Assembly: GCA_000004985.1 (NCBI GenBank)
Contig: GG738919.1
Source of the DNA: Naegleria gruberi
Lineage: Eukaryota
Length of the DNA: 64,000 nt
Reading direction: 5' to 3' (one strand)
The notes under the pieces are model-generated. The model had not been told where the DNA came from. It ran no database searches and saw only the letters and a list, made by a program, of their open reading frames with translations. The position numbers and the translations under genes were made by a program. Shown here in pieces: positions 793 to 61,955 of this stretch. Each line of letters starts with the position of its first letter. Within the stretch, counting starts at the first letter, position 1.

Positions 793-1038
793 AGAATATA
801 TTGATGAACTCACATTAACATTGTAACCTATGCAATTTCAAGGAGAAACACAAATTCAATCTGATTTCAGGAGAACTTGCAATCTATTTTTAATTCACAA
901 AAACTTAAAAAAAATCCAAAACCTCGAGCAAGAAGGAATTTATTTTCAATTTGCTTTTAAAAACTCTAAGAGACCGGAGATAATATTATCCAATAATATT
1001 ATTTATTTTAATAATTGTTAAATAATAATAATAACACT

Positions 1039-2058
1039 ATGGGTGTACGTAAACTTGCTACTATTCGTACTGCAGGAGAAATTACTCCTATTGCAGGTGC
1101 AGAAGCTATTGAATGTTGCCATGTTGATGGTTGGACTTGTGTGATCAAGAAGGGAGAATTTAAACAAGGTGAGAGGGGAGTCTATTTTGAAATTGATAGT
1201 TTCATAAAGGAAGATAATGATAGGTATCCAATGCTTTCAAAACAAGTTATTGATTATGAAGGTCAAAGAGGTACTCGTCTTCGTACTGCTAGGTTGAGAG
1301 GTCAATTGAGCCAAGGGTTGTTCTTGCCAATGGATAGATTCCCAGAATTGGCTTCCAATCAAGTGGGTGATGATGTTACAGAAATTCTAGGAATTACAAA
1401 ATGGGAACCACCAATTTCCACTAATCTTTCTGGTGAAATTTTGGGTGAATTTCCAACTTTTATTAGTAAGACAGATCAGGAACGTGTACAAAACTTAATT
1501 CCACAAATTGAAGAAAATAAGGGTCAAAAATTTGAAGTGACTGTGAAATTGGATGGCTCATCAATGACTGTATATAGGAAAGATGACCATATTGGTGTAT
1601 GTGGAAGAAATTGGGAATTGAGAGAAACTGCAACTAATGCACAATGGCATGCTGTTAGGAGAAACAAAATGATTGAAGGATTACAATTTTTAAATAGAAA
1701 TTTGGCCCTACAAGGTGAAATTATTGGAGAATCAATTCAAGGAAATTTGGAAAAATTGAAAGGTCAAGATTTTTACTTGTTTGATATTTATGATATTGAT
1801 AAGGCTCAGTATTTGACACCAATTGAACGACAATCATTGGTGAAGCAATTGAATGATAACGGATTCACTGTCAAACATGTCCCAATTTTGGATGATTTGG
1901 AATTGAATCATACAGCAGAGCAGATTTTGGCAATGGCTGATGGGCCATCTTTGAACAAGAATGTCAAAAGAGAAGGTTTAGTATTCAAGAGATTGGACGG
2001 TAAATTTAGTTTCAAAGCAATTTCCAATGCCTATCTTGAAAAGCATAAAGATCGATAA
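1039..2058 (+). CDS. ATP-dependent RNA ligase, Rnl5/DraRnl-like nick-sealing ligase (NgrRnl-like), 339 aa
   Basis: ATG at 1039 (MGVRKLATIRT...). Nucleotidyltransferase motif I KLDGSS has the lysine at residue 170. Motif IV QGEIIGE gives Glu227. C-terminal EGLVFKRLDGKFSFKAIS gives Lys326. Length 339 aa. Length and residue numbering match what I recall for Naegleria gruberi NgrRnl (Rnl5 family, homologous to Deinococcus DraRnl). Single exon. Confidence 0.85.
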   Translation: MGVRKLATIRTAGEITPIAGAEAIECCHVDGWTCVIKKGEFKQGERGVYFEIDSFIKEDNDRYPMLSKQVIDYEGQRGTRLRTARLRGQLSQGLFLPMDRFPELASNQVGDDVTEILGITKWEPPISTNLSGEILGEFPTFISKTDQERVQNLIPQIEENKGQKFEVTVKLDGSSMTVYRKDDHIGVCGRNWELRETATNAQWHAVRRNKMIEGLQFLNRNLALQGEIIGESIQGNLEKLKGQDFYLFDIYDIDKAQYLTPIERQSLVKQLNDNGFTVKHVPILDDLELNHTAEQILAMADGPSLNKNVKREGLVFKRLDGKFSFKAISNAYLEKHKDR

Positions 2059-2253: not shown

Positions 2254-5200
2254 NNNNNNNNNNNNNNNNNNNNNNNNNNNNNNNNNNNNNNNNNNNNNNN
2301 NNNNNNNNNNNNNNNNNNNNNNNNNNNNNNNNNNNNNNNNNNNNNNNNNNNNNNNNNNNNNNNNNNNNNNNNNNNNNNNNNNNNNNNNNNNNNNNNNNNN
2401 NNNNNNNNNNNNNNNNNNNNNNNNNNNNNNNNNNNNNNNNNNNNNNNNNNNNNNNNNNNNNNNNNNNNNNNNNNNNNNNNNNNNNNNNNNNNNNNNNNNN
2501 NNNNNNNNNNNNNNNNNNNNNNNNNNNNNNNNNNNNNNNNNNNNNNNNNNNNNNNNNNNNNNNNNNNNNNNNNNNNNNNNNNNNNNNNNNNNNNNNNNNN
2601 NNNNNNNNNNNNNNNNNNNNNNNNNNNNNNNNNNNNNNNNNNNNNNNNNNNNNNNNNNNNNNNNNNNNNNNNNNNNNNNNNNNNNNNNNNNNNNNNNNNN
2701 NNNNNNNNNNNNNNNNNNNNNNNNNNNNNNNNNNNNNNNNNNNNNNNNNNNNNNNNNNNNNNNNNNNNNNNNNNNNNNNNNNNNNNNNNNNNNNNNNNNN
2801 NNNNNNNNNNNNNNNNNNNNNNNNNNNNNNNNNNNNNNNNNNNNNNNNNNNNNNNNNNNNNNNNNNNNNNNNNNNNNNNNNNNNNNNNNNNNNNNNNNNN
2901 NNNNNNNNNNNNNNNNNNNNNNNNNNNNNNNNNNNNNNNNNNNNNNNNNNNNNNNNNNNNNNNNNNNNNNNNNNNNNNNNNNNNNNNNNNNNNNNNNNNN
3001 NNNNNNNNNNNNNNNNNNNNNNNNNNNNNNNNNNNNNNNNNNNNNNNNNNNNNNNNNNNNNNNNNNNNNNNNNNNNNNNNNNNNNNNNNNNNNNNNNNNN
3101 NNNNNNNNNNNNNNNNNNNNNNNNNNNNNNNNNNNNNNNNNNNNNNNNNNNNNNNNNNNNNNNNNNNNNNNNNNNNNNNNNNNNNNNNNNNNNNNNNNNN
3201 NNNNNNNNNNNNNNNNNNNNNNNNNNNNNNNNNNNNNNNNNNNNNNNNNNNNNNNNNNNNNNNNNNNNNNNNNNNNNNNNNNNNNNNNNNNNNNNNNNNN
3301 NNNNNNNNNNNNNNNNNNNNNNNNNNNNNNNNNNNNNNNNNNNNNNNNNNNNNNNNNNNNNNNNNNNNNNNNNNNNNNNNNNNNNNNNNNNNNNNNNNNN
3401 NNNNNNNNNNNNNNNNNNNNNNNNNNNNNNNNNNNNNNNNNNNNNNNNNNNNNNNNNNNNNNNNNNNNNNNNNNNNNNNNNNNNNNNNNNNNNNNNNNNN
3501 NNNNNNNNNNNNNNNNNNNNNNNNNNNNNNNNNNNNNNNNNNNNNNNNNNNNNNNNNNNNNNNNNNNNNNNNNNNNNNNNNNNNNNNNNNNNNNNNNNNN
3601 NNNNNNNNNNNNNNNNNNNNNNNNNNNNNNNNNNNNNNNNNNNNNNNNNNNNNNNNNNNNNNNNNNNNNNNNNNNNNNNNNNNNNNNNNNNNNNNNNNNN
3701 NNNNNNNNNNNNNNNNNNNNNNNNNNNNNNNNNNNNNNNNNNNNNNNNNNNNNNNNNNNNNNNNNNNNNNNNNNNNNNNNNNNNNNNNNNNNNNNNNNNN
3801 NNNNNNNNNNNNNNNNNNNNNNNNNNNNNNNNNNNNNNNNNNNNNNNNNNNNNNNNNNNNNNNNNNNNNNNNNNNNNNNNNNNNNNNNNNNNNNNNNNNN
3901 NNNNNNNNNNNNNNNNNNNNNNNNNNNNNNNNNNNNNNNNNNNNNNNNNNNNNNNNNNNNNNNNNNNNNNNNNNNNNNNNNNNNNNNNNNNNNNNNNNNN
4001 NNNNNNNNNNNNNNNNNNNNNNNNNNNNNNNNNNNNNNNNNNNNNNNNNNNNNNNNNNNNNNNNNNNNNNNNNNNNNNNNNNNNNNNNNNNNNNNNNNNN
4101 NNNNNNNNNNNNNNNNNNNNNNNNNNNNNNNNNNNNNNNNNNNNNNNNNNNNNNNNNNNNNNNNNNNNNNNNNNNNNNNNNNNNNNNNNNNNNNNNNNNN
4201 NNNNNNNNNNNNNNNNNNNNNNNNNNNNNNNNNNNNNNNNNNNNNNNNNNNNNNNNNNNNNNNNNNNNNNNNNNNNNNNNNNNNNNNNNNNNNNNNNNNN
4301 NNNNNNNNNNNNNNNNNNNNNNNNNNNNNNNNNNNNNNNNNNNNNNNNNNNNNNNNNNNNNNNNNNNNNNNNNNNNNNNNNNNNNNNNNNNNNNNNNNNN
4401 NNNNNNNNNNNNNNNNNNNNNNNNNNNNNNNNNNNNNNNNNNNNNNNNNNNNNNNNNNNNNNNNNNNNNNNNNNNNNNNNNNNNNNNNNNNNNNNNNNNN
4501 NNNNNNNNNNNNNNNNNNNNNNNNNNNNNNNNNNNNNNNNNNNNNNNNNNNNNNNNNNNNNNNNNNNNNNNNNNNNNNNNNNNNNNNNNNNNNNNNNNNN
4601 NNNNNNNNNNNNNNNNNNNNNNNNNNNNNNNNNNNNNNNNNNNNNNNNNNNNNNNNNNNNNNNNNNNNNNNNNNNNNNNNNNNNNNNNNNNNNNNNNNNN
4701 NNNNNNNNNNNNNNNNNNNNNNNNNNNNNNNNNNNNNNNNNNNNNNNNNNNNNNNNNNNNNNNNNNNNNNNNNNNNNNNNNNNNNNNNNNNNNNNNNNNN
4801 NNNNNNNNNNNNNNNNNNNNNNNNNNNNNNNNNNNNNNNNNNNNNNNNNNNNNNNNNNNNNNNNNNNNNNNNNNNNNNNNNNNNNNNNNNNNNNNNNNNN
4901 NNNNNNNNNNNNNNNNNNNNNNNNNNNNNNNNNNNNNNNNNNNNNNNNNNNNNNNNNNNNNNNNNNNNNNNNNNNNNNNNNNNNNNNNNNNNNNNNNNNN
5001 NNNNNNNNNNNNNNNNNNNNNNNNNNNNNNNNNNNNNNNNNNNNNNNNNNNNNNNNNNNNNNNNNNNNNNNNNNNNNNNNNNNNNNNNNNNNNNNNNNNN
5101 NNNNNNNNNNNNNNNNNNNNNNNNNNNNNNNNNNNNNNNNNNNNNNNNNNNNNNNNNNNNNNNNNNNNNNNNNNNNNNNNNNNNNNNNNNNNNNNNNNNN

Positions 5201-6871
5201 NNNNNNNNNNNNNNNNNNNNNNNNNNNNNNNNNNNNNNNNNNNNNNNNNNNNNNNNNNNNNNNNNNNNNNNNNNNNNNNNNNNNNNNNNNNNNNNNNNNN
5301 NNNNNNNNNNNNNNNNNNNNNNNNNNNNNNNNNNNNNNNNNNNNNNNNNNNNNNNNNNNNNNNNNNNNNNNNNNNNNNNNNNNNNNNNNNNNNNNNNNNN
5401 NNNNNNNNNNNNNNNNNNNNNNNNNNNNNNNNNNNNNNNNNNNNNNNNNNNNNNNNNNNNNNNNNNNNNNNNNNNNNNNNNNNNNNNNNNNNNNNNNNNN
5501 NNNNNNNNNNNNNNNNNNNNNNNNNNNNNNNNNNNNNNNNNNNNNNNNNNNNNNNNNNNNNNNNNNNNNNNNNNNNNNNNNNNNNNNNNNNNNNNNNNNN
5601 NNNNNNNNNNNNNNNNNNNNNNNNNNNNNNNNNNNNNNNNNNNNNNNNNNNNNNNNNNNNNNNNNNNNNNNNNNNNNNNNNNNNNNNNNNNNNNNNNNNN
5701 NNNNNNNNNNNNNNNNNNNNNNNNNNNNNNNNNNNNNNNNNNNNNNNNNNNNNNNNNNNNNNNNNNNNNNNNNNNNNNNNNNNNNNNNNNNNNNNNNNNN
5801 NNNNNNNNNNNNNNNNNNNNNNNNNNNNNNNNNNNNNNNNNNNNNNNNNNNNNNNNNNNNNNNNNNNNNNNNNNNNNNNNNNNNNNNNNNNNNNNNNNNN
5901 NNNNNNNNNNNNNNNNNNNNNNNNNNNNNNNNNNNNNNNNNNNNNNNNNNNNNNNNNNNNNNNNNNNNNNNNNNNNNNNNNNNNNNNNNNNNNNNNNNNN
6001 NNNNNNNNNNNNNNNNNNNNNNNNNNNNNNNNNNNNNNNNNNNNNNNNNNNNNNNNNNNNNNNNNNNNNNNNNNNNNNNNNNNNNNNNNNNNNNNNNNNN
6101 NNNNNNNNNNNNNNNNNNNNNNNNNNNNNNNNNNNNNNNNNNNNNNNNNNNNNNNNNNNNNNNNNNNNNNNNNNNNNNNNNNNNNNNNNNNNNNNNNNNN
6201 NNNNNNNNNNNNNNNNNNNNNNNNNNNNNNNNNNNNNNNNNNNNNNNNNNNNNNNNNNNNNNNNNNNNNNNNNNNNNNNNNNNNNNNNNNNNNNNNNNNN
6301 NNNNNNNNNNNNNNNNNNNNNNNNNNNNNNNNNNNNNNNNNNNNNNNNNNNNNNNNNNNNNNNNNNNNNNNNNNNNNNNNNNNNNNNNNNNNNNNNNNNN
6401 NNNNNNNNNNNNNNNNNNNNNNNNNNNNNNNNNNNNNNNNNNNNNNNNNNNNNNNNNNNNNNNNNNNNNNNNNNNNNNNNNNNNNNNNNNNNNNNNNNNN
6501 NNNNNNNNNNNNNNNNNNNNNNNNNNNNNNNNNNNNNNNNNNNNNNNNNNNNNNNNNNNNNNNNNNNNNNNNNNNNNNNNNNNNNNNNNNNNNNNNNNNN
6601 NNNNNNNNNNNNNNNNNNNNNNNNNNNNNNNNNNNNNNNNNNNNNNNNNNNNNNNNNNNNNNNNNNNNNNNNNNNNNNNNNNNNNNNNNNNNNNNNNNNN
6701 NNNNNNNNNNNNNNNNNNNNNNNNNNNNNNNNNNNNNNNNNNNNNNNNNNNNNNNNNNNNNNNNNNNNNNNNNNNNNNNNNNNNNNNNNNNNNNNNNNNN
6801 NNNNNNNNNNNNNNNNNNNNNNNNNNNNNNNNNNNNNNNNNNNNNNNNNNNNNNNNNNNNNNNNNNNNNNN
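2254..6871. other. assembly gap (N run, 4618 nt)
   Basis: Uninterrupted n characters. Six-frame ORFs of XXXX across it are artefacts. Confidence 0.99.
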
Positions 6872-9251: not shown

Positions 9252-10247
9252 NNNNNNNNNNNNNNNNNNNNNNNNNNNNNNNNNNNNNNNNNNNNNNNNN
9301 NNNNNNNNNNNNNNNNNNNNNNNNNNNNNNNNNNNNNNNNNNNNNNNNNNNNNNNNNNNNNNNNNNNNNNNNNNNNNNNNNNNNNNNNNNNNNNNNNNNN
9401 NNNNNNNNNNNNNNNNNNNNNNNNNNNNNNNNNNNNNNNNNNNNNNNNNNNNNNNNNNNNNNNNNNNNNNNNNNNNNNNNNNNNNNNNNNNNNNNNNNNN
9501 NNNNNNNNNNNNNNNNNNNNNNNNNNNNNNNNNNNNNNNNNNNNNNNNNNNNNNNNNNNNNNNNNNNNNNNNNNNNNNNNNNNNNNNNNNNNNNNNNNNN
9601 NNNNNNNNNNNNNNNNNNNNNNNNNNNNNNNNNNNNNNNNNNNNNNNNNNNNNNNNNNNNNNNNNNNNNNNNNNNNNNNNNNNNNNNNNNNNNNNNNNNN
9701 NNNNNNNNNNNNNNNNNNNNNNNNNNNNNNNNNNNNNNNNNNNNNNNNNNNNNNNNNNNNNNNNNNNNNNNNNNNNNNNNNNNNNNNNNNNNNNNNNNNN
9801 NNNNNNNNNNNNNNNNNNNNNNNNNNNNNNNNNNNNNNNNNNNNNNNNNNNNNNNNNNNNNNNNNNNNNNNNNNNNNNNNNNNNNNNNNNNNNNNNNNNN
9901 NNNNNNNNNNNNNNNNNNNNNNNNNNNNNNNNNNNNNNNNNNNNNNNNNNNNNNNNNNNNNNNNNNNNNNNNNNNNNNNNNNNNNNNNNNNNNNNNNNNN
10001 NNNNNNNNNNNNNNNNNNNNNNNNNNNNNNNNNNNNNNNNNNNNNNNNNNNNNNNNNNNNNNNNNNNNNNNNNNNNNNNNNNNNNNNNNNNNNNNNNNNN
10101 NNNNNNNNNNNNNNNNNNNNNNNNNNNNNNNNNNNNNNNNNNNNNNNNNNNNNNNNNNNNNNNNNNNNNNNNNNNNNNNNNNNNNNNNNNNNNNNNNNNN
10201 NNNNNNNNNNNNNNNNNNNNNNNNNNNNNNNNNNNNNNNNNNNNNNN
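9252..10247. other. assembly gap (N run, 996 nt)
   Basis: Uninterrupted n characters. Confidence 0.99.
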
Positions 10248-10910: not shown

Positions 10911-11974
10911 AATTAAATAAAACAGTGACGACTATTGGTACATTAAGACCATCCTCTACCATAATTCATTATTTCTTGATTCTCTTTTGTTTCAAATGGT
11001 AATGAAGTGTTTTGGTTTTTTTTGGTAATAGTATTCACTAATTCCATTGCATTTTCGTATGATGTTACCACCCCATACAGTGTCTCTTCTTATTACTCTC
11101 TAAAGATTTGACCCTTTGCTTCACTATCAAAATTTATAGAGGGCTTTGTTACCTCAATATATCCCAAAGCAAGGTTAATAAAATCTTTTTTCAAATTATT
11201 ATTCTTAAAATTACTGTGTATCAGATTAAAATCAGGCTTTCTTTAGTGTTTCCCTTAAGTGAGTATCTACAGCAATATATCCATGGTGCGTTTTGGAAGA
11301 AATTCTGTAAAAAATTCTTGTACAAAGGATTCCTTAGTGAGGTTTCTTTCTTGTAGTGGTGTCAGAGTAATTGATGGGATTGGTGGAAGCAGAACATTAT
11401 CTAGCCATGTTGGGGCGCATTCTCACGTCAATACTCCACAATAATCAACTCTTCAAAAAACTCAGAGTTATTTTCTGATGATTCTGGTTGCACCAATGGC
11501 AGCTTAATTTTATGTTCCAAAAGTGCAATTCGCTGCAATAAATTGTTAAGAGTTGATGGATCAAATTCCGGACTTTTACAAAATTTGGAAATTCATTAAA
11601 GTTTTTTCAAAAGTAAAAAAAATAGCAAACAATGCATCTTCTCCCTTCCACTAGATATTTGGCAACATTGTATTTTTGAATATTTGATTGGTCCGATTCA
11701 TGAAATTAATTTTCAAACAAATGATGAAATTATGAAATTCAAGAATTTAACTTGTCCTAAAATTTGGGAAGGATTGGATGTGGAAACATTTCCATTGTAA
11801 AAATGCAGAAATTAATAGAGGCAGTTGAGATGAATGCGAATAGAGAGTACAAGGATATTATCGATCCAAACATGTGTAGTAATAATTATTATTATGATAC
11901 AGATTTAGATTTAAATGAAGTTCCAAATGATTTCTCAAATGAGGAAGTGAACAATTGAACGAGCTCAGAAATTA

Positions 11975-15548: not shown

Positions 15549-17694
15549 ATGAGTGAATCAACATCTTCATCAGCACATAACATCTTCCCAATCATTTCTC
15601 CACTCGATAAGCAAAGTTTTGCCAATAATCATCAAGTGGTGGCTCATCACTATTACATGGATCTCACCACTGATTTTAAAAACAAAATTCTTGTTGGTTA
15701 TGTTGATGTTACTTTTGAGGCTTTGATTGATCGTCCGAGTCATGTTGTTGTTGATGCTCGTAATTTGGTTATTAAACAAACTAAATTCCTCTACAAGAAG
15801 CATCATAAACACTCTGAGGATAATATTAATGAACAACAACATCAAGAACATGAACTTGCTTTCCGAGTCTTCTCCAAGAGTGAAGTAGCACAAAATGGTT
15901 ATCCATCAGTTTATGGTGAACCTCTTTCTATGAGTCTTACTCATGAAGCTGTTGATTTGGAGGCTGGAAACTTTTTCGTGGTTAGAATTTTCTATGAAAC
16001 TACTCATGAGAGTGAAGCTATTCAATGGTTGGAACCAGAACAAACTCTCGGAAAGGTTCATCCATACTTGTTTACTCAATGTCAAGTAGGTTTTTTAATT
16101 TCTATCAAATCTAACCATCCATGTAATTCAATGAAAATCACACAATCATCAACTATTATATTATTATTATTGGAAATGTATTAAATTAATAATTACTGGA
16201 AAATAATATTAACATTAATCGGATAATTACAATAATTATTTTCATCATGATAGGCTATTCATGCTCGTTCTCTCCTTCCATGTCAAGATACTCCATCCAA
16301 CAAGATTACATACTCATCAACCATTAGAACACCAAAGCCACTCGTAGCTGCCATGTCTGCCATTAAACAATGGGAAGATGTCTCCACTCATATTAACATT
16401 TATCACTTTAAACAAAATGTCACAATTCCATCCTATTTGATTGCTTTGGTTGTTGGTGCTTTAGAAAGTAAGGAGATTGGACCAAGAAGTACTCTCTATT
16501 GTGAAGCTGAAGTTTTGGAAGCTGCTGCTTATGAATTCTCTGAAACAGAAGCTTTCATTAAGGCTGCTGAAGAATTCTTGCCACCTTATGCTTGGGGTAG
16601 ATACGATATTGTCCTCTTGCCAAGTTCTTATCCATTCGGTGGTATGGAAAATAGTAATCTCACTTTCCTCACTCCAACATTGCTTGCTGGAGACAGAAGT
16701 TTAGCGTAAGTAATTCTTTATACTTTCCATTAATAATCTAATGATCCTTAGTAATGTTGTTGCTCACGAAATTGCTCACTCCTGGTCTGGTAATTTGATT
16801 ACCAATTCCACTTGGGAAGATTTTTGGTTAAATGAAGGTTTTACTGTATTTATTGAAAGAAGAATTCTTGCTAGATTATCTGGTGAAGAATATGCCAAAT
16901 TCCATGCTCAAATGGGTTACAGTCATTTGGTTTCATCAATCAATCATTATAAGGAAATTAATGAATTGCAATATACCAAGATGATTCCACTTTTGGAAAA
17001 GTGTGATCCTGATGATGCCTTCTCTTCAGTTCCATATGAAAAGGGATTCAACTTTTTATATTATTTGGCTGATCAAATTGTTGGATCCATTCCAAGATTT
17101 GAAAAGTTCTTGTATCATTACTTTACTGTCTTTTGTCAAAAGACTGTTAACAGTGCCGAAATGAAGAAGTGCTTCTTGGAATATTTCGCTGATGTTGAAA
17201 AGACTAAGGAAATTGATTGGGATTCTTGGTTCAATGTTGAAGGTGATTTGATTGTCAAGAATAACTTTGAAAATACTTTGAACGTTGCTGCTAATGCTTT
17301 GTGTGAAAAGTGGACAAGTGGTGCTGAAGGAACATTCGCTAAGAGTGATATTGAAGGATGGTCATCAACTCAACTCACATACTTCCTCGATATTCTCTTG
17401 AGTAATGACAAGCCATTGAATGTTCAAAAATTGGATGAAACCTATGAATACTCTAAATACACTAACAGTGAAATTAGATTTGGTTGGCAAATGCTTGCTA
17501 TCAAACACAAATACGAACCAGTCAAGCCTCAAGTTGTTGCATTCATTACAATGCAAGGTAGAATGAAATATGTCAGACCACTCTATCGTGAGCTCTTCAA
17601 ATTTGATGCTGAATTGGCCAGAAGTACTTTCCAACAATACAAGGGATTCTACCACGGTATTGCCAGAAAGATGATTGAAAAGGATTTACAATAA
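15549..17694 (+). CDS. leukotriene A4 hydrolase / M1-family zinc aminopeptidase, ~643 aa, 3 exons
   Basis: Exons 15549-16085, 16254-16705, 16752-17694. Introns 16086-16253 (168 nt, gtaggt..tag) and 16706-16751 (46 nt, gtaagt..tag). The spliced product aligns collinearly with LTA4H (from memory): FTQCQ|[14 protein letters not shown] and SL|[19 protein letters not shown]. Zinc site HEIAH...[10 protein letters not shown]-terminal domain ...[13 protein letters not shown]. Confidence 0.9.
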
Positions 17695-17905
17695 ACTATT
17701 TCAATATCAATGTGTTTAAGCCAATAGTAGACATTGAATAGTGTTCTTGTTCAATAATTTGGCAAACTAACTGTAGAAAGTCTATCAAATTTCACTCAAA
17801 ATTTGCAAATAGTATTCCAATAACAAATTAATAGAATCCGACTTTCGAAAAGACACAGTGCACGACATTCGATGGTGGATCCGCTTTCAACACGAAAAAA
17901 TTGTC

Positions 17906-22094: not shown

Positions 22095-22167
22095 GTACCC
22101 TTGGCTCAATTGGAAGAGCATCGGCCTACGGAGCCGGGGGTTGTGGGTTCGAGTCCCACAGGGTATA
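22095..22167 (+). tRNA. tRNA-Arg (anticodon ACG), 73 nt
   Basis: Cloverleaf read by eye. Acceptor GTACCCT/AGGGTAT with G1-U72 wobble. D arm GCTC/GAGC. Anticodon stem TCGGC/GCCGG with loop CTACGGA. T arm GTGGG-TTCGAGT-CCCAC. Discriminator A. Pol III terminator T6 follows at 22171-22176. Confidence 0.85.
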
Positions 22168-28443: not shown

Positions 28444-29358
28444 TCATTCCTTCTTCATTATTTCAAAGACAGAGGCAAAATCTTCCTGACCCTTGATTTG
28501 TTCATCTCTATTACCAGCTTGTTCGTAGAGATTTTTGATTGTGGAAATAAGATTGGTGTTAACTTTTGAATCTTCTGCCATCTTTTCAATACAATCCAAA
28601 TCCTTGACAATACCATTGACTGAAAAGTTCATATCCGAGTAATCATGATTTAATAACCTTGGAAGTTTCATATCAAAATATTTAAAATAGAGGGCGCTAT
28701 CTCTGACAATATCTGCATACATATTTACATCGAGATCATTTGATTGGACAAGTGAAATAGAGTTGGCCAACACACCTGTAAGGGAGGCAACAAGGAAATT
28801 GAGTGAAAGTTTCATTTTGATAGCTTTTGATTTTTCTCCTACATGTTTAAGACTTCCAAAATTTTGTAAAACATTCAAAGATTCCACTCTTTCAAATAAT
28901 TCCTTTGAACATCCCAATAAAACTTGTAACTTTCCAGCAATGGCAACTGTATTAGTTCCCAAAACGGGTGCTTCAATAAATTCACCACCACATCTACCTG
29001 TCAATTCATCTAATCTTGCCGATTGTTCCACAGAAATGGTACTCATCTGAATAAACACCTTTCCACTCAATGGTGATCCACCCAATTTATCCAAATTTTG
29101 AAACACGACATCCACAATATTTTGATAATCAAATAACATGGAAATAATAATTCCAATCGATTGATCAGCAAGTACTCTTTGAATATCTTCATCGGACGAA
29201 GAAATTACATGACAAGAGGAAGGAAATTCCTTTACAAGATCCATCGCCTTGGTACTCGTCCTATTGTACACATACACTTCGTGGTTGTTGATAAGAAGAT
29301 GTTTTGCCATCGGAAGACCCATCAAGCCTAAACCAAAAAACGCAATCTTGTGAGGCAT
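28444..29358 (-). CDS. 3-hydroxyisobutyrate dehydrogenase-like NAD(P)-binding dehydrogenase (6PGDH-NAD-binding fold), 304 aa
   Basis: N-terminal Rossmann KIAFFGLGLMGLPMAKHL. Family-typical spacing of Gly and Lys residues. Single exon. ATG at 29358-29356. Confidence 0.75.
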   Translation of the reverse strand: MPHKIAFFGLGLMGLPMAKHLLINNHEVYVYNRTSTKAMDLVKEFPSSCHVISSSDEDIQRVLADQSIGIIISMLFDYQNIVDVVFQNLDKLGGSPLSGKVFIQMSTISVEQSARLDELTGRCGGEFIEAPVLGTNTVAIAGKLQVLLGCSKELFERVESLNVLQNFGSLKHVGEKSKAIKMKLSLNFLVASLTGVLANSISLVQSNDLDVNMYADIVRDSALYFKYFDMKLPRLLNHDYSDMNFSVNGIVKDLDCIEKMAEDSKVNTNLISTIKNLYEQAGNRDEQIKGQEDFASVFEIMKKE

Positions 29359-29417: not shown

Positions 29418-30029
29418 TTAATACTTTCTATAGTTGTGTTCTTGAGTAACGTAATCTTGGAATCTTGGATGAGCCTTCAAAACCTCCTTAGATTTGATAA
29501 TATGAGTAAATTGACTCAAATCAACTTCCTTAAATTGGAGTGCATAAACCATGTCCAAAAGAACAAAGTCAGCCCAAGTGAACTTTCCCTTGATGAGATG
29601 TCCATCTCCATTCTCTTCCAAAATCTTTTCCAATGCACCCAAGATTGTCTTGACTGGTCCTTCAAGGAAAACTTTCTTTTCTTGTTCTCTGGTTTCTTCT
29701 GGAGCAATGAAGAAAACTCTGGCATACTTATTGAAAAGTTCGTCAATGGCTGCAACATATTCTTCAGTTTGTGTGGCTTCAATATTGTCCTTTGGATACA
29801 AATCACCTTGTTGTGCCAAATATCTGGCAATTGCATATGTTTGATAAATGGTCAACTTGTCATTTACCTTTAAATATGGCATTTGACCATATCTTGTGTG
29901 TGGCTTGTGAGTTGGCCATTCATCTTTAGTGATACCAACAACCTTGTAATCAACATTGGCTACGTGGGCGATCAACTTGAGAAGTTCGGATCTTCCAGGA
30001 CCTGCAAAGTAAACAATTTCAACGACCAT
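29418..30029 (-). CDS. glutathione S-transferase, 203 aa
   Basis: Thioredoxin-like N-terminal domain with YFAGPGRSELLKLIA...GQMPYLKV. C-terminal GST helices. Single exon. ATG at 30029-30027. Confidence 0.75.
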   Translation of the reverse strand: MVVEIVYFAGPGRSELLKLIAHVANVDYKVVGITKDEWPTHKPHTRYGQMPYLKVNDKLTIYQTYAIARYLAQQGDLYPKDNIEATQTEEYVAAIDELFNKYARVFFIAPEETREQEKKVFLEGPVKTILGALEKILEENGDGHLIKGKFTWADFVLLDMVYALQFKEVDLSQFTHIIKSKEVLKAHPRFQDYVTQEHNYRKY

Positions 30030-30232
30030 TTTCTTGTGTTTTAGTTAAGATTAGAGTTTTGTTATTTGTTTTGAATTGGAGTGTGATGGAATGCAATTGA
30101 AGTGGTATTTATTCAGATGTGAAGATAGAATTAGTCCTTTCTTATCACGGGTGCACAATTTGTTTACAAAACTTATATCGGAACCTGTTTTGATCTTTCA
30201 ACTGTTGAAAAAAATTTGATTACATTGGCAAA

Positions 30233-30321
30233 AGGCGACTGAGGGAATTGAACCCTCGACCCTCAGTTATCTCGGCATTTCTGCCTACAAGACTGATGCA
30301 CTGCCACTGTGCTAAGCCGCC
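30233..30321 (-). tRNA. intron-containing tRNA, anticodon UGU (tRNA-Thr by anticodon), 17-nt intron after position 37
   Basis: Minus-strand read: GGCGGCT-TA-GCAC-AGTGGCA-GTGC-A-TCAGT-CTTGTA-[GGCAGAAATGCCGAGAT]-A-ACTGA-GGGTC-GAGGG-TTCAATT-CCCTC-AGTCGCC-T. All four stems pair perfectly once the 17-nt insert at the canonical 37/38 site is removed. TTTT follows on the minus strand. A Tyr(GUA) reading was tested and fails to pair. Confidence 0.7.
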
Positions 30322-30666
30322 TTACGATGGAAATAAAAAATAATAATTAATAAATTTGATTGGTAATGTGAGGAACCCAGTTCACTATTTAAAAGCTTTA
30401 TTCAGCATTATATATCTGGAAAAATTAGAAAGAGTGAGCTCAAAGATACATGATACATGATCGAGATTGAAATGAATGCTCAAGACAAGAAATTAATTAC
30501 AAGAAAATTATCACGAACTAAAACAGTACATAATGTAGGACATTGAATATTTCATGCGATCGCACCCAATCGGGATTTTTTATGTACTACATGCGCGGCC
30601 TTTAATTTGTAATCAATTTCTCTCTGAACAATTTTCATCGAACAAAATCATCAAAAACAAAAAAAA

Positions 30667-36653: not shown

Positions 36654-39188
36654 ATGGTTGTGGATAATAGCGATAGTAGAACAAGTCTTCGAGTGAATGA
36701 ATCAGAGTTACGAGTGCCTTCTGCAGAATTATTAGAAATGGATAGTAATATGTCGAGTTTTTCGGGCTCGTTTGATATTGCCATCGGAGGAGGAGGAAAT
36801 AAACAATATGAAGACAACTATGATGAAAGGTCAACTACTCGTTCACATAGTAATAGCACTGCAAAGGAAAAGGCAATTTCTGTGCTGCAGAAGAAGTTTG
36901 ACATTAAAAATTTATTTAATAATGAAGAGATGGAAAAGAGAGATAAAGTGGGTTGGCTAAACTCTATTCGATTCAAGACTCTAACAATATTACTCTTGCT
37001 GTTCTTTGTGACAGTGTTGGCTTGTCTGGTAATATTGATCGTTGCCTTCCATTTATCATATACGAGGGTTGAGTACAATTCGGTGGTGGAAGCAAGTGTT
37101 AGAGTATCTCGAGGAATACACGAATATTATAGTGGTCTGTATGTTAAACTTTTGGAATATGCACCATGGGATTCAACTTTGAATCTGTTTGTGAATGTGA
37201 CCTATGAGGATGGTACCACAATTGAGCCAAGTCCTGAACTGGTTGACCAATATTTTACAAACAACATTTTTTGTTCATATATGAGCAATGTTAACTTGTC
37301 ACTTGTTGCTCTGTATTATTTGAACGGAACTAAATTAAGGAGTATGGCTTGCTTTAACTCAACATTGGAGGAGAGTTTACCTGAAGAATTGGAAAATCTT
37401 TCGCCAGATCATTATCTCATTAAGGATATGTCAGTAACATCAACTAGGAGAGCTACCTATATGAAGCCATCATCAAACAATGTAAATCACTCTAATGACA
37501 TGTTAATGCTCGTGGCAATGCCGGTACTGAGCTCGGATTATTCATCAGAATCTGGAGGTGTTATGGTATTCGGAAGATACCAGAACGCTGATGCTATTCA
37601 TGCATTAACTACCAAGACTCAACTTTGTATATCATTTTATAATTACAATTCTTCGAGCGATCAGCTTGTTGTTGAAAAATCAACATCAACAAGTGCTAAA
37701 CAATTCGATTCTGTTGTTTCTTCAAGTGAAGCATTGCAGGTAGATGTAGAAGATGACAGCTGGGTGTTACAATCAGCAATATATGTTTCTACATTTGATT
37801 CTGCAGATGCTGTGGCGACTACAAATAGGTATTGTTATTCTACCAAGACTAAAAATTCTGGAATGACTCCAGAAGCCATTGATGGTGAAAGAATGTCTGC
37901 TTATCAAATCATGTCTGATATTAATGGAGAAAAGACAATTCTCGTTAGAACAGACATGTCTAGAAAAATTTACACTAATGGAATCAATTCTTTCCTTATT
38001 ACTTGGGGAGTAATGACAGTCATGTTAATTATCCTTTCTGTAGCTGTAATGGCCTTTATTGAGCTAGTGGTGCTGAGAAGAATGGTGAGATTAACTAATT
38101 CAGTCGTTAAAATTACAAACAATTGGGAAACTGTTGTGATGAACGGCTCTAGAATTCCCAAATATACCCAAGACGAAATTGGTAGATTGGCAAACCGCGT
38201 TAATTTAATGCTTGGAGTTTTGGAAAAGTCCTATCAACACTTACAAAAGGATCACGAAAATGCTCAATCTCTATTAGATCGAACCTCTCTTGAGGAACAA
38301 AAATATAGACAAGTGTTGAATGCTATATCAGATTTCATTATTACCATTGATTCTAAAGATGGTAAAATATTGAATTATAACACATCATTCCAGGCTAAAA
38401 TCATGACCAGAGTGGTAAATGAGGCCACAGAGAAGAAGGTCACCAACAAGGCAATTAATGAATACTTTGACTCCAAGCCAACCATGCAAGAGTTGCTTGG
38501 TAGGATGGAGGACATTTGTTCTGGCACAGCCAAGATTTGGGAAACTAATTTTGTTTCAAGATACAATGCTCTCATACCCATTCATGTAAATTGTAGTAAG
38601 GTGAAGATTGTCATTGATGGAGGAGAAATTGTGGATGCATTTGTTCTGTTGGCAAGAAATATGGCCGACCAGTACGAACTTCAAAAGACAATCAAGACTC
38701 AACAAGAACAATTCTCAGAGCAAAGAATGAATTTCGAGTTTGACTATTATTGGAAGAATAAGGAAATGAAAGAAAAGTTGAGAATATTCTGTATTAATGA
38801 GAAATCATACGAAAATTGCCTATTCCTTGAAGAAGTTGAAGCATATAGAAAGATTAAACGTACACATAACCGTGTCAAGAAGCAACAGGAAATAATTGCC
38901 AAATTCCTGACAAAGGATGCCAAATATGAGCTCAATATTTCTAAAGAGGAAGAGTTTACAATCGTTTCTAAAATAAGGGATGGATATGGGCAGATAGATT
39001 TGTTGGATAAACTGTTTTCCATTGTACGGGGAATGTTTTATAGAGATACATTCCAAAGATTCCTCAAAGAATTGGATCAAGAGAATGAGTCCACTACTTC
39101 ATCTAGTGGATTGGACGTAGACGAAACATCAGATACAATCTCATCTTCCACATCCTTCACTGATTTCACTGGTCCTACAGATAAATAG
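36654..39188 (+). CDS. transmembrane sensor-type RGS protein: cytosolic N-term, TM1, ~310-aa N-glycosylation-rich extracellular domain, TM2, HAMP, PAS, RGS; 844 aa, single exon
   Basis: ATG 36654. TM1 ~aa108-132 (LTILLLLFFVTVLACLVILIVAF). Many NxS/T sites between the TMs. TM2 ~aa447-474 (FLITWGVMTVMLIILSVAVMAFIELVVL). HAMP signature ...IPKYTQDEIGRLANRVNLMLGVLE. PAS-like block LEEQKYRQVLNAISDFIITIDSKDGKILNYNTSFQ...VIDGGEIVDAFVLLARNMADQYE. RGS fold KEKLRIFCINEKSYENCLFLEEVEAYRKIK...IIAKFLTKDAKYELNIS. TAG stop at 39186-39188. Confidence 0.75.
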   Translation: MVVDNSDSRTSLRVNESELRVPSAELLEMDSNMSSFSGSFDIAIGGGGNKQYEDNYDERSTTRSHSNSTAKEKAISVLQKKFDIKNLFNNEEMEKRDKVGWLNSIRFKTLTILLLLFFVTVLACLVILIVAFHLSYTRVEYNSVVEASVRVSRGIHEYYSGLYVKLLEYAPWDSTLNLFVNVTYEDGTTIEPSPELVDQYFTNNIFCSYMSNVNLSLVALYYLNGTKLRSMACFNSTLEESLPEELENLSPDHYLIKDMSVTSTRRATYMKPSSNNVNHSNDMLMLVAMPVLSSDYSSESGGVMVFGRYQNADAIHALTTKTQLCISFYNYNSSSDQLVVEKSTSTSAKQFDSVVSSSEALQVDVEDDSWVLQSAIYVSTFDSADAVATTNRYCYSTKTKNSGMTPEAIDGERMSAYQIMSDINGEKTILVRTDMSRKIYTNGINSFLITWGVMTVMLIILSVAVMAFIELVVLRRMVRLTNSVVKITNNWETVVMNGSRIPKYTQDEIGRLANRVNLMLGVLEKSYQHLQKDHENAQSLLDRTSLEEQKYRQVLNAISDFIITIDSKDGKILNYNTSFQAKIMTRVVNEATEKKVTNKAINEYFDSKPTMQELLGRMEDICSGTAKIWETNFVSRYNALIPIHVNCSKVKIVIDGGEIVDAFVLLARNMADQYELQKTIKTQQEQFSEQRMNFEFDYYWKNKEMKEKLRIFCINEKSYENCLFLEEVEAYRKIKRTHNRVKKQQEIIAKFLTKDAKYELNISKEEEFTIVSKIRDGYGQIDLLDKLFSIVRGMFYRDTFQRFLKELDQENESTTSSSGLDVDETSDTISSSTSFTDFTGPTDK

Positions 39189-59090: not shown

Positions 59091-61955
59091 TCATTGTTGG
59101 AATGAAAGGAAGTTTGTGGTGGAGGTTGGAGTTGAGCTTGGTTGTGGTGCTTCTTTTTCTCTCTTCTTGGACTTAGAAGTTGTACCACTTGAAGATGGTG
59201 TAGAAGTGCCTCTTAGATAAGCATCATTATAAAGAGTCTTGACATCTGGCCTTTTTGACATTTCATGTGTAAGGCAACGTCTGATAAATTCCTTAGCTTC
59301 TTCTGAGACAGCAGGTTTATCAGGAAAACCAACTTGGGTGGCATTTACGATTGTTCCTTCGCTAAGAATTTTTTGTTGTGAAAGGTTGTTTCCAAATGGT
59401 TTTGTACCGTACAACATTTGGAAAAAGATTACACCCGCCGACCAAACATCAACCTTGTTTGAAATTTTAGGTGGTGGACCTTCACCTGATGGGTTATAAA
59501 AACATTCTGGAGGTAAATACCAATATGTTCCTGCACCCTGTGATGTCAACTCTATAGACTCTTCTTCATCCATAATTTTAGAAAGACCAAAATCTGTAAT
59601 CTTAATATTTCCATCCTTATCAAATAAAATGTTAGCAGGTTTCAAATCGTAGTGAATAACTCTTTGCTTTTGTTGGCATAAATAGTTAAGTCCACTAAAT
59701 ATTTGAGAAATGATATTCTTGGCTTCTCTTTCTGGTACTCTTTGGTGCTTTTTAATGTACAAATCCAAATCAGCACCCTCACAATATTCCAATACTGTAA
59801 CAAAAGTGTTATTGTCAAAGACAAAAGTGTCATACATCTTGATAAGCTTTTCATGATTAATGCTTTGATTAATTTGACATTCTCGCAACACGTGTTTGAT
59901 ATAATTCTCCTTTCGGTGCTCTTTCCAATTTGGATTCAGTTGATGTATTTTACATGCCACAACTTTAAAGTCTGTGAGATCATAGGCCTTGTAGACTTCA
60001 CTAAAGCCTCCTTTACCAAGCATTTTCATAAGGAAGTATTCATGATGATTACTTGGTTGTGGTTGTTGACCATTAATTTGAGGTGTTCCAGGACCATCTG
60101 GTGTGGTTGGAATATATTTTTGGTGTCCAATGATTGGATAATTCTTAAACATTGACTTTTCTTGATCTCTAATACGTTTGATTTCTCTGATCTGTATACT
60201 CTTTTCAATCAAGAGGTTCTCTTGTTCTGCAATATTTTGAGTTTCTTCCTTCTTGAGATGTATAAGTTTTAACTTGACTGTTTCCTCTTGCTCATTTAGG
60301 TCGTGCAATTGTTCTTCTAATTTTCTTATAAATTCGGCATCGTTTGTAGTAATTTGTTCCTTCTTCAATTGTTGTCTTTGTTTTTGAATATTCTTCTTTT
60401 GCTTTTCCAATTTGTCTTTTTCTGTCGTTATTCTATTTTCATTTTCTTTCAATTGTTGGAACAGTGTACCATCTTGCCAAACTTCATAAACGTCCAATCC
60501 TTTTTGATATGTAATAGTACCTATTGTTATTGACTTTTCATTAACCTTTTTCTTATCCTCAATTCTTTCTCTTTCAGCCCTTTCTCTTAAAAATTGGACT
60601 GCAATTTCTCTGAATCTCTTATTACGTTCGTTGTTTTTAATATCATAGTCATGGATTGCATTCTTCATTTGATTGATTTCACTCTCATAACCCTTTGTCT
60701 TGGATTCAGAATTTTCAAGCGATTTGTCTTTTTGTTTCAATTGCTCTTTAACATGTTCGAGTTCTAGTTGTAATTTGGCAATCTGTTGTTGATAAGCTTC
60801 AATGTTACTTTGAACGCCTGTATTATTTATGGCACTGGAACCCATACTAGAATTGGAATTGTAAGACATCATAAAACTGTTACTATTATTGCTAGCGTCA
60901 ACATATAAACTATTACTGTTTTGATTAGAGGAAGAAGATGCCATATTGGATTGACTCTTCTTTGAAGTGCTAGCTTGAAGACTTTGAAACATTTGAGGAA
61001 GTGTCTTTTGCTTCTTGTTTGAAGGCTCCACAAGTTCCTCACCCTCAATACTTAGAGAGTTTTCTTGTTTGTTACAATTTAAAGTAGTATTATTGCTGTT
61101 AGGAGGTGCGAGGTAAATTACAGGAGATGTTTGAGGTAGTGATTGAGGTTGGTTGGATTGATAAGTAGTACTGTTTTCAGTAATGCTCGATGAAACAGAT
61201 GAAGGAATAGTAATTTGATTATTGTTGTTGTTGTTGTTCGTACTGGTGTTGATAGTATTGTTTGAGTACTTGTCACCAGAGTTTTGTCCACTAATAATAT
61301 TAGAAGCATTATTATTGGAGGATCCAGCATTGTTTGTTGAAGAGGAAACTCCAGAAGATGAAGCTTGTTGAGCGGTAGATACAGGCTCACCATCGTCTTT
61401 CCTCATTCTCATATATCTGCTCTTGATTTGTTCCTTTGTTCTTTCGATACATGCATACTTTGCGACACCATCCCAATCAATGTTATTGTCCTTCTTATGT
61501 TTTGCAATTCCTTCTTTAATCTTTTTATCTTCTTCTGGGGTAAATCTTCTTCTCTTCTTTGCCGCAGCAGCAGCTGTTGAAAGATGAGCAGCAGCAGGAT
61601 TTGAAGTAGATGATGATCCTGTACTACTACCTGGAGCACCATTACCAGAACTTGATTTGTGGAGGTTGAAACTGCCTTGATTACCACTACCCATATTAAA
61701 ACTTTGGTGGTGGTCCATATTATTCACTCCATACATATTGTCATCTTCTTCTACAAGATGATCATCATTATCTCTCATCATTGCATTATTTACAAAGGTC
61801 CTTTGTAGGCCTGGTTGATATTCAGAAGACTCTTCACTGTTTACGCTTTCTTCCATGTGTTCTTCAGATTCGTCATTAGAGAGTGATACTGTTGTGCCAA
61901 ATCCCTGCGGAGAAGTTGGTTTAGAGTTGTTAGACTCTCCCGCTGTATGTTGCAT
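59091..61955 (-). CDS. Tousled-like serine/threonine kinase with an N-terminal Myb/SANT-like domain, 954 aa, single exon
   Basis: C-terminal kinase domain matches the TLK family very closely: LGKGGFSEVYKAYDL...HYDLKPANILF...GNIKITDFGLSKIMD...LTSQGAGTYWYLPPECF...PKISNKVDVWSAGVIFFQMLYG. Central coiled-coil. Myb-like segment ~aa135-185: RRRFTPEEDKKIKEGIAKHKKDNNIDWDGVAKY...QIKSRYMRM. N/Q/S low-complexity linkers. Confidence 0.85.
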   Translation of the reverse strand: MQHTAGESNNSKPTSPQGFGTTVSLSNDESEEHMEESVNSEESSEYQPGLQRTFVNNAMMRDNDDHLVEEDDNMYGVNNMDHHQSFNMGSGNQGSFNLHKSSSGNGAPGSSTGSSSTSNPAAAHLSTAAAAAKKRRRFTPEEDKKIKEGIAKHKKDNNIDWDGVAKYACIERTKEQIKSRYMRMRKDDGEPVSTAQQASSSGVSSSTNNAGSSNNNASNIISGQNSGDKYSNNTINTSTNNNNNNNQITIPSSVSSSITENSTTYQSNQPQSLPQTSPVIYLAPPNSNNTTLNCNKQENSLSIEGEELVEPSNKKQKTLPQMFQSLQASTSKKSQSNMASSSSNQNSNSLYVDASNNSNSFMMSYNSNSSMGSSAINNTGVQSNIEAYQQQIAKLQLELEHVKEQLKQKDKSLENSESKTKGYESEINQMKNAIHDYDIKNNERNKRFREIAVQFLRERAERERIEDKKKVNEKSITIGTITYQKGLDVYEVWQDGTLFQQLKENENRITTEKDKLEKQKKNIQKQRQQLKKEQITTNDAEFIRKLEEQLHDLNEQEETVKLKLIHLKKEETQNIAEQENLLIEKSIQIREIKRIRDQEKSMFKNYPIIGHQKYIPTTPDGPGTPQINGQQPQPSNHHEYFLMKMLGKGGFSEVYKAYDLTDFKVVACKIHQLNPNWKEHRKENYIKHVLRECQINQSINHEKLIKMYDTFVFDNNTFVTVLEYCEGADLDLYIKKHQRVPEREAKNIISQIFSGLNYLCQQKQRVIHYDLKPANILFDKDGNIKITDFGLSKIMDEEESIELTSQGAGTYWYLPPECFYNPSGEGPPPKISNKVDVWSAGVIFFQMLYGTKPFGNNLSQQKILSEGTIVNATQVGFPDKPAVSEEAKEFIRRCLTHEMSKRPDVKTLYNDAYLRGTSTPSSSGTTSKSKKREKEAPQPSSTPTSTTNFLSFQQ

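Follow-up and report, generated by a model that had tools for sequence, protein, structure and literature searches.

A splicing endonuclease and a tRNA ligase are expected in any eukaryotic host. To our knowledge, Thr-UGU is absent from the spliced tRNA families of both yeast and human, and we know of no spliced tRNA in trypanosomatids other than tRNA-Tyr. The supergroup Discoba includes both Naegleria and Leishmania. In archaea and eukaryotes, protein-only splicing has its canonical intron site at position 37/38 (PMC4090602; PMC10485636). Across the 576 eukaryotes of GtRNAdb release 19, the most intron-rich tRNAs are Tyr, followed by Ile(UAU) and Leu(CAA), and introns occur in ~7% of tRNA genes in animals, ~6% in plants and ~50% in fungi (PMC12168002). 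Sea urchin, at 3.7%, and Cryptococcus neoformans, at 92%, mark the ends of the range for the intron-containing fraction (PMC4090602), and because these fractions vary so widely among eukaryotes, the isoacceptors that carry introns are lineage-specific. Hayne et al. (2023) have argued that the four-subunit endonuclease is restricted to Amorphea, and the cytosolic endonuclease of Trypanosoma brucei appears to lack subunits other than a catalytic and a structural one (PMC10485636).

For N. gruberi, a survey published in 2010 counted 924 tDNAs by tRNAscan-SE (PMC2888827), and the gene that we describe here has therefore almost certainly been predicted before. Our literature search found no paper describing nuclear tRNA introns in Naegleria, and none joining Thr-TGT with the term intron-containing. 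Here we analyse a tRNA-Thr(UGU) gene interrupted by 17 nt at the canonical site and compare it with genes from Naegleria and Willaertia relatives and from metagenomes.

Results

Genomic setting

The locus lies in a stretch of 64,000 nucleotides, all of which was analysed and which we call the window. This DNA comes from the nuclear genome of Naegleria gruberi. An open reading frame at 1015–2058 (+) matches the N. gruberi RNA ligase NgrRnl (PDB 5COT) over all 340 residues at ~99% identity, and two reading frames that neighbour the tRNA gene, at 28444–29358 (−) and 29418–30029 (−), match NCBI proteins of N. gruberi from a 216-kb contig at 100% identity. Domains typical of eukaryotes are encoded in the window, including Ras, BACK, RGS, Sec8 and a protein kinase with Myb, and its G+C content is ~34%.

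Several features of the window stand apart from the tRNA gene. The NgrRnl reading frame comprises an N-terminal OB domain and an RNA_ligase domain, with two differences from the crystallised sequence (E for D and V for A). It is 28 kb away from tRNA-Thr(UGU), and NgrRnl is not known to us as a tRNA-splicing ligase. Two frames pair their domains oddly: the 844-aa frame at 36654–39188 (+) joins a CHASE4 sensor domain to RGS, and the 954-aa frame at 59091–61955 (−) joins a Myb DNA-binding domain to a protein kinase. Runs of N at 2254–6871 (4618 bases) and 9252–10247 (996 bases) are presumably masked or unassembled stretches, and they give rise in every frame to artefactual 'ORFs' of 1500 aa.

Gene structure and cloverleaf

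ARAGORN, run on the window, called a tRNA-Thr with the anticodon tgt on the minus strand at 30232–30322. Rfam independently matched RF00005 at 30321..30233 (−); the hit scores 58.5 bits (E = 4.6e-10), where the gathering score is 29. The RF00005 alignment is full-length (model positions 1–71), and the insertion state in the anticodon loop holds 19 nt where 2 are expected. Only two loci exceed the Rfam gathering thresholds in the whole window, tRNA-Arg(ACG) and tRNA-Thr(UGU), and ARAGORN found the same two. The two programs thus agree with the initial annotation, which had proposed a tRNA with a UGU anticodon and a 17-nt intron at 37/38, and they supply the minus strand, which that annotation had left unstated.

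The gene occupies 30233–30321 (−) and specifies an 89-nt precursor body that includes the discriminator U73; CCA is not encoded. The 5′ exon, at 30286–30321 (−), comprises tRNA positions 1–37 in 36 nt, with position 17 absent, as read from a hand parsing that agrees with the Rfam alignment. The anticodon UGU (positions 34–36) resides at 30287–30289 (−), appearing as 'aca' on the plus strand and as tgt in ARAGORN. The intron, GGCAGAAAUGCCGAGAU, is 17 nt long and sits between positions 37 and 38 at 30269–30285 (−); its exact match is unique in the window. The 3′ exon, at 30233–30268 (−), comprises positions 38–73 in 36 nt, by the Rfam alignment and by sequence reading. The minus-strand transcript accordingly reads GGCGGCU-UA-GCAC-AGUGGCA-GUGC-A-UCAGU-CUUGUA, then the intron GGCAGAAAUGCCGAGAU, then A-ACUGA-GGGUC-GAGGG-UUCAAUU-CCCUC-AGUCGCC-U.

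Removal of the intron gives a product of 72 nt including U73 (75 nt after CCA addition), and not the 71 nt first put forward for 30233–30321. This product is predicted to fold into a clean cloverleaf at −27.0 kcal/mol; the precursor fold is predicted at −35.5 kcal/mol, with a z-score of −3.3 versus shuffles. The initial annotation had all four stems pairing perfectly once the 17 nt are removed. All four do pair, but not by Watson-Crick pairs throughout, as the acceptor stem contains a single wobble, G5-U68. The mature anticodon loop, C32 U33 U34 G35 U36 A37 A38, has 7 nt with a purine at 37; the short variable loop, of 5 nt, is that of a class I tRNA. By hand reading, the conserved nucleotides U8, A14, G18, G19, U33, G53, U54, U55, C56, A58 and C61 are all in place, as are the tertiary partners G15-C48 and C13-G22-G46. 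The gene carries G1-C72, G35, U36 and U73, which we take to resemble human tRNA-Thr. Its Rfam score is near the 62.8 bits of the intronless Arg(ACG) gene.

To place the intron, we removed by hand each possible run of 17 contiguous nucleotides from the 24 nt that separate the two strands of the anticodon stem. UGU is the sole sound anticodon, because every other removal deprives the loop of U33, puts a pyrimidine at 37, or cuts one base off (38/39) with the same anticodon. A Tyr reading of the locus was rejected on the failure of these alternative registers, in keeping with the earlier statement that with a Tyr(GUA) reading the anticodon stem cannot form. A Ser reading was rejected on the absence of a long variable arm. 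A group I intron was likewise rejected, as the insert has 17 nt versus the more than ~200 nt needed and Rfam found no group I match in the window. The antisense strand of the gene has a 44-aa stop-free translation, for which a search of a protein database gave no match.

Promoter boxes, T runs and flanking sequence

The internal promoter of RNA polymerase III has the consensus TRGCNNAGTGG for the A box and GGTTCRANNCC for the B box. In tRNA-Thr(UGU), an A box, UAGCACAGUGG, at 30304–30314 (−) and a B box, GGUUCAAUUCC, at 30244–30254 (−; ggaattgaacc on the plus strand) fit these consensus sequences by sequence reading. The 3′ trailer, at 30208–30233 (−), contains T runs that resemble RNA polymerase III terminators: U73 followed by TTT (30233–30230), and a T7 run (30214–30208) 19–25 nt downstream of the gene. 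The run directly after the gene is just four T, U73 included, which counts against a functional gene. Sequence reading of the 5′ flank, at 30322–30365 (−), found it AT-rich (…AAUUUAUUAAUUAUUAUUUUUUAUUUCCAUCGUAAG), and it may contain a TATA-like upstream element. Taken together, the boxes, the T runs and the AT-rich flank would fit an expressed nuclear tRNA gene.

The other tRNA gene of the window, tRNA-Arg(ACG) at 22095–22167 (+), is intronless, scores 62.8 bits and has a T6 terminator starting 3 nt past its end. It is built like tRNA-Thr(UGU), which supports reading the latter as functional. A scan of the tRNA-Thr(UGU) locus for bacterial promoters and terminators gave nothing, a result that is irrelevant to RNA polymerase III.

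The intron and its possible bulge-helix-bulge motif

We defined the strict hBHBh′ motif as two 3-nt bulges around a 4-bp helix, with flanking helices of at least 2 bp and splicing after the second nucleotide of each bulge. In the tRNA-Thr(UGU) precursor a central 4-bp helix is possible, joining the anticodon loop to nucleotides 12–15 of the intron (CGAG) and formed by C32-G15i, U33-A14i, U34-G13i and G35-C12i, where i denotes the intron. The 3-nt bulge A16 U17 A38 holds the 3′ splice site and the 3-nt bulge U36 A37 G1 holds the 5′ site. An outer helix of 3 bp follows, in which intron nucleotides G2-C3-A4 pair with U9-G10-C11 and close a GNRA-type GAAA loop. As a possible pairing, this is the strict hBHBh′ arrangement, and C32-G15i fills the place of the A-I base pair with the 3-nt bulge remaining.

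We found a complete central helix (4/4) together with 3 bp or more of outer helix in 0.12% of 200,000 shuffled introns. The strict motif occurred in 0.13% of random 17-mers at the window composition (34% GC), and in ~0.3% of those shuffled introns that already had the A-I pair. The bulge-helix-bulge (BHB) drawing is available to this intron and rare by chance. In predicted energies, the strict-motif conformer lies at −31.8 kcal/mol, the minimum-energy fold at −35.5 kcal/mol and a fold with the GGCA/UGCC hairpin only at −34.8 kcal/mol, so that the strict BHB conformer is 3.7 kcal/mol less stable than the minimum-energy fold in the nearest-neighbour model. The small GGCA/UGCC hairpin that had been noticed earlier within the intron is part of that minimum-energy fold. 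We infer that the BHB could nonetheless be the form that the endonuclease recognises.

tRNA genes of Naegleria and Willaertia relatives

Over 1840 nt, the window shares 99.3% identity with L001, an N. gruberi-like contig of 1.8 kb that comes from an ENA metagenome and also carries the window's GST. This contig starts within the 3′ exon, 5 nt past the intron, and the 32 exon nucleotides that it holds (window 30264–30233) are unchanged; the first of its 13 mismatches to the window falls in the 3′ flank of tRNA-Thr(UGU). A break within a tRNA gene is as expected at a repeated sequence, which is only a hint. The assembly that contains L001, ERZ929261 (PRJEB11402), also contains GST homologues in L003 (72% aa) and L004 (56% aa), which suggests that several Naegleria-like amoebae were present in the sample. 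ARAGORN found no tRNA near the GST homologues of L003, L004 and N. fowleri (L005–L007), and Rfam found none near those of L003–L005 and L007. Because the GST homologues of these relatives are without an adjacent tRNA, support from synteny is absent. The locus of a dehydrogenase homologue, L129, has no room for a tRNA.

In Willaertia magna (GCA_041937235.1), Rfam detected two tRNA-Gln(UUG) genes, in L002 at 10983–11067 (+) and in L128 at 17641–17723 (+). Their exons are identical and their introns at 37/38 differ, being ATAAGAAAAAAGTC (14 nt) and ATAACATAGTCA (12 nt), and T runs follow both genes. The L002 intron can form a 4/4 central helix with an outer helix of 1 bp; the L128 intron fails the strict rule, with the pattern 0110. 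The L002 gene begins 59 nt after a gene like 3-hydroxyisobutyrate dehydrogenase, a homologue of the neighbour of GST in the window. ARAGORN missed both Gln(UUG) genes. It misses intron-containing tRNAs more generally, calling none in the metagenomic contigs L016 and L037, each of which holds one, and we therefore rescanned the heterolobosean loci with Rfam.

The third sampled tRNA gene of W. magna, Arg(UCU) in L002, is intronless, so that introns occur in 2 of 3, both of them Gln(UUG). In the whole heterolobosean sample, a very small one of five tRNA genes, three contain an intron, and Tyr, Ile(UAU) and Leu(CAA) are all missing from those three. Small as it is, the sample speaks for spliced tRNAs being common and varied in Heterolobosea.

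Thr(UGU) genes with inserts in metagenomes

A strict pattern built from the anticodon arm, variable loop and T loop of N. gruberi tRNA-Thr(UGU), with a gap of 0–30 nt allowed, gave no match in either IMG/VR or the JGI metagenomes. With a generic pattern, which asked for any Thr(UGU) gene carrying an insert of 5–35 nt after CUUGUA, we obtained at least 120 loci, and the matches listed include 108 well-formed tRNAs with a 9–35-nt insert at 37/38. Among the matches listed, 93 have U73. All 93 of these can form the pair between position 32 and intron position −3, 44 have a 4/4 central helix, and 24 have, in addition, an outer helix of at least 2 bp. Among the 15 listed with A73, the 32:(−3) pair is possible in 12 and the strict motif in none. 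The U73 genes listed mostly have GC-rich stems, and CCA follows in many; judged on these features, most of them would appear to be archaeal. In its pairing, the N. gruberi intron behaves like this archaeal-looking majority among the matches listed.

Genes on contigs of the A73 group and on others include an NCLDV major capsid protein (L016), a minor capsid protein P2 (L089), a topoisomerase IA (L121) and a class I aaRS (L086), and the eukaryotic-looking Thr(UGU) contigs carry dense tRNA clusters. A 'eukaryotic' origin of the A73 group and some others was dropped in view of these capsid genes and tRNA clusters, which mark the contigs as giant-virus-like; they are therefore no proof of Thr(UGU) introns in cellular eukaryotes. 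Thr(UGU) genes with 9–30-nt inserts at 37/38 occur on the giant-virus-like contigs L016, L037, L045, L046, L070 and L127, with further cases on L012, L072, L121, L086 and L089. In the L089 tRNA, 24 bases (TTAGCACAGTGGCAGTGCATCA) are identical to the D-arm region of N. gruberi tRNA-Thr(UGU). Six contigs, L014, L047, L073, L075, L103 and L111, form a Thr(UGU) family with related introns of 30–33 nt. Introns of this type open with a near-duplicate of the anticodon stem's 5′ strand (…CCTGA CTTGTA CCTGATNATT…), and the contigs, of up to 242 kb, have 34–40% GC.

Discussion

Read from its sequence, the locus is very probably a working nuclear gene for tRNA-Thr(UGU), whose canonical 17-nt intron the standard endonuclease-ligase pathway removes. 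RNA polymerase III would transcribe it via the internal A and B boxes and end at the downstream T runs. The 89-nt precursor could then show each splice site in a 3-nt bulge flanking the 4-bp helix, with C32-G15i standing at the place of the A-I pair, the pair needed by eukaryotic endonucleases. TSEN would be expected to cleave after A37 and after intron U17, and an RNA ligase to join the tRNA-Thr halves. End trimming and CCA addition would yield a 75-nt tRNA predicted to read ACA, and ACG by wobble. Transcription, cleavage, ligation and the enzyme architecture are what we infer for this gene.

The locus might instead be a dead copy, one of many tDNAs that acquired a 17-nt insertion in its anticodon loop and whose transcript, if any, stays unspliced. 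Pseudogenes are likely to exist among 924 tDNAs (PMC2888827), and no syntenic tRNA was found in the relatives examined. Against this, the insert lies precisely at 37/38 and builds a splice motif with a chance of ~0.001, all stems and conserved nucleotides are intact with a score near that of the Arg gene, and the 32 nt of 3′ exon in a second strain (L001) are unchanged up to a first mismatch in the 3′ flank; we regard a dead copy as improbable. Another isotype, such as Ser or Tyr, or an intron at a non-canonical position draws on the general ambiguity of intron placement, visible in the 4-nt 'anticodons' that ARAGORN reports at several other intron-containing loci. At this locus the remaining 17-nt removals lose U33 or put a pyrimidine at 37, the long variable arm of Ser is absent and the two programs agree, which makes a different assignment hardly credible.

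Within the preferred reading of a spliced, functional gene, it is quite possible, if short of probable, that the BHB is incidental and that the endonuclease uses a ruler mechanism and the A-I pair alone, as in yeast and human. Eukaryotic enzymes are described as working by a ruler, and helices between intron and anticodon are dispensable in yeast and Xenopus extracts (PMC4090602). The GGCA/UGCC hairpin is also energetically favoured over the strict motif, and one of the two Willaertia Gln introns (L128, pattern 0110) breaks the strict rule. On the other side, the full motif arises by chance in ~0.12% of cases, or ~0.3% given the A-I pair, and non-Amorphea including Leishmania are inferred to have an endonuclease of the two-subunit type, which may read local structure (PMC10485636). 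We speculate, tentatively and with more doubt than conviction, that the heterolobosean tRNA set is intron-rich and that its strict BHB is read in the archaeal way by a two-subunit-type (alpha-beta)2 endonuclease, and not by a ruler. A strict BHB that arises about once in a thousand by chance fits the idea of Hayne et al., though it is a single case and one of the two Willaertia introns disagrees.

Tyr, Ile(UAU) and Leu(CAA) had been named in the initial annotation as the typical intron carriers, which matches the GtRNAdb survey (PMC12168002), and a Thr(UGU) intron had been called unusual. It does fall off the animal and plant pattern, but it is not surprising for a protist, given the ~50% in fungi and the Gln(UUG) introns of Willaertia. 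Alone, the gene is of little weight: it adds another protein-spliced tRNA intron in the usual place, such as tRNAscan-SE would flag whenever run on the published genome. Its value is comparative: it extends the spliced-tRNA repertoire of Discoba beyond the tRNA-Tyr of trypanosomatids, and it offers a short and tidy strict-BHB substrate from a free-living relative of Naegleria fowleri. Recent reviews argue that a simpler, archaeal-like endonuclease may be at work outside animals, fungi and Amoebozoa, a proposal that a handful of natural substrates of this kind would render testable. If recognition is of the archaeal style, tRNA-Thr(UGU) would serve as a clean natural substrate on which to test what Hayne et al. 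(2023) propose about non-Amorphea eukaryotes.

Comparison with known systems

The N. gruberi intron resembles the eukaryotic TSEN/Sen introns, known from ten spliced families in yeast and four in human, in its position at 37/38, in its short length (typically 15–30 nt), in the pair between position 32 and intron position −3, and in a 3′ splice site within a 3-nt bulge. It differs from them in that a 3-nt bulge is possible at its 5′ site as well, so that the motif is strict and not relaxed. With the archaeal hBHBh′ introns at 37/38, including those of the archaeal-looking Thr(UGU) genes (L008–L127), it shares the same rule, positions 32–35 pairing with intron positions −3 to −6, and the two 3-nt bulges followed by an outer helix; the 4/4 helix is found in 44 of the 93 U73 genes listed. 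The exons differ, GGCGGCU… in N. gruberi versus mostly GCCCCGR… in the archaeal-looking Thr(UGU) genes, and we saw no sequence relationship between the N. gruberi intron and the introns of those genes. N. gruberi is, moreover, a eukaryote, and its gene does not encode CCA and has promoter and terminator features of the RNA polymerase III type.

Eukaryotic nuclear pre-tRNA introns with a strict or relaxed BHB are likewise found in Cyanidioschyzon merolae (PMC3728597), where they commonly occur at ectopic sites, in multiples or together with permuted genes; the N. gruberi gene has one intron, at the canonical site. The Willaertia Gln(UUG) introns come from the same class, Heterolobosea, and are alike in their 37/38 position, in being short and A/U-rich and in the T runs after the gene. 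They belong to another isoacceptor, and while the L002 intron has a 4/4 helix like that of N. gruberi, its outer helix is 1 bp and the L128 intron fits poorly. The tRNA-Tyr intron of T. brucei is a nuclear tRNA intron from the same supergroup, Discoba. Trypanosomatids differ in that the introns of Naegleria and Willaertia reside in isoacceptors other than Tyr.
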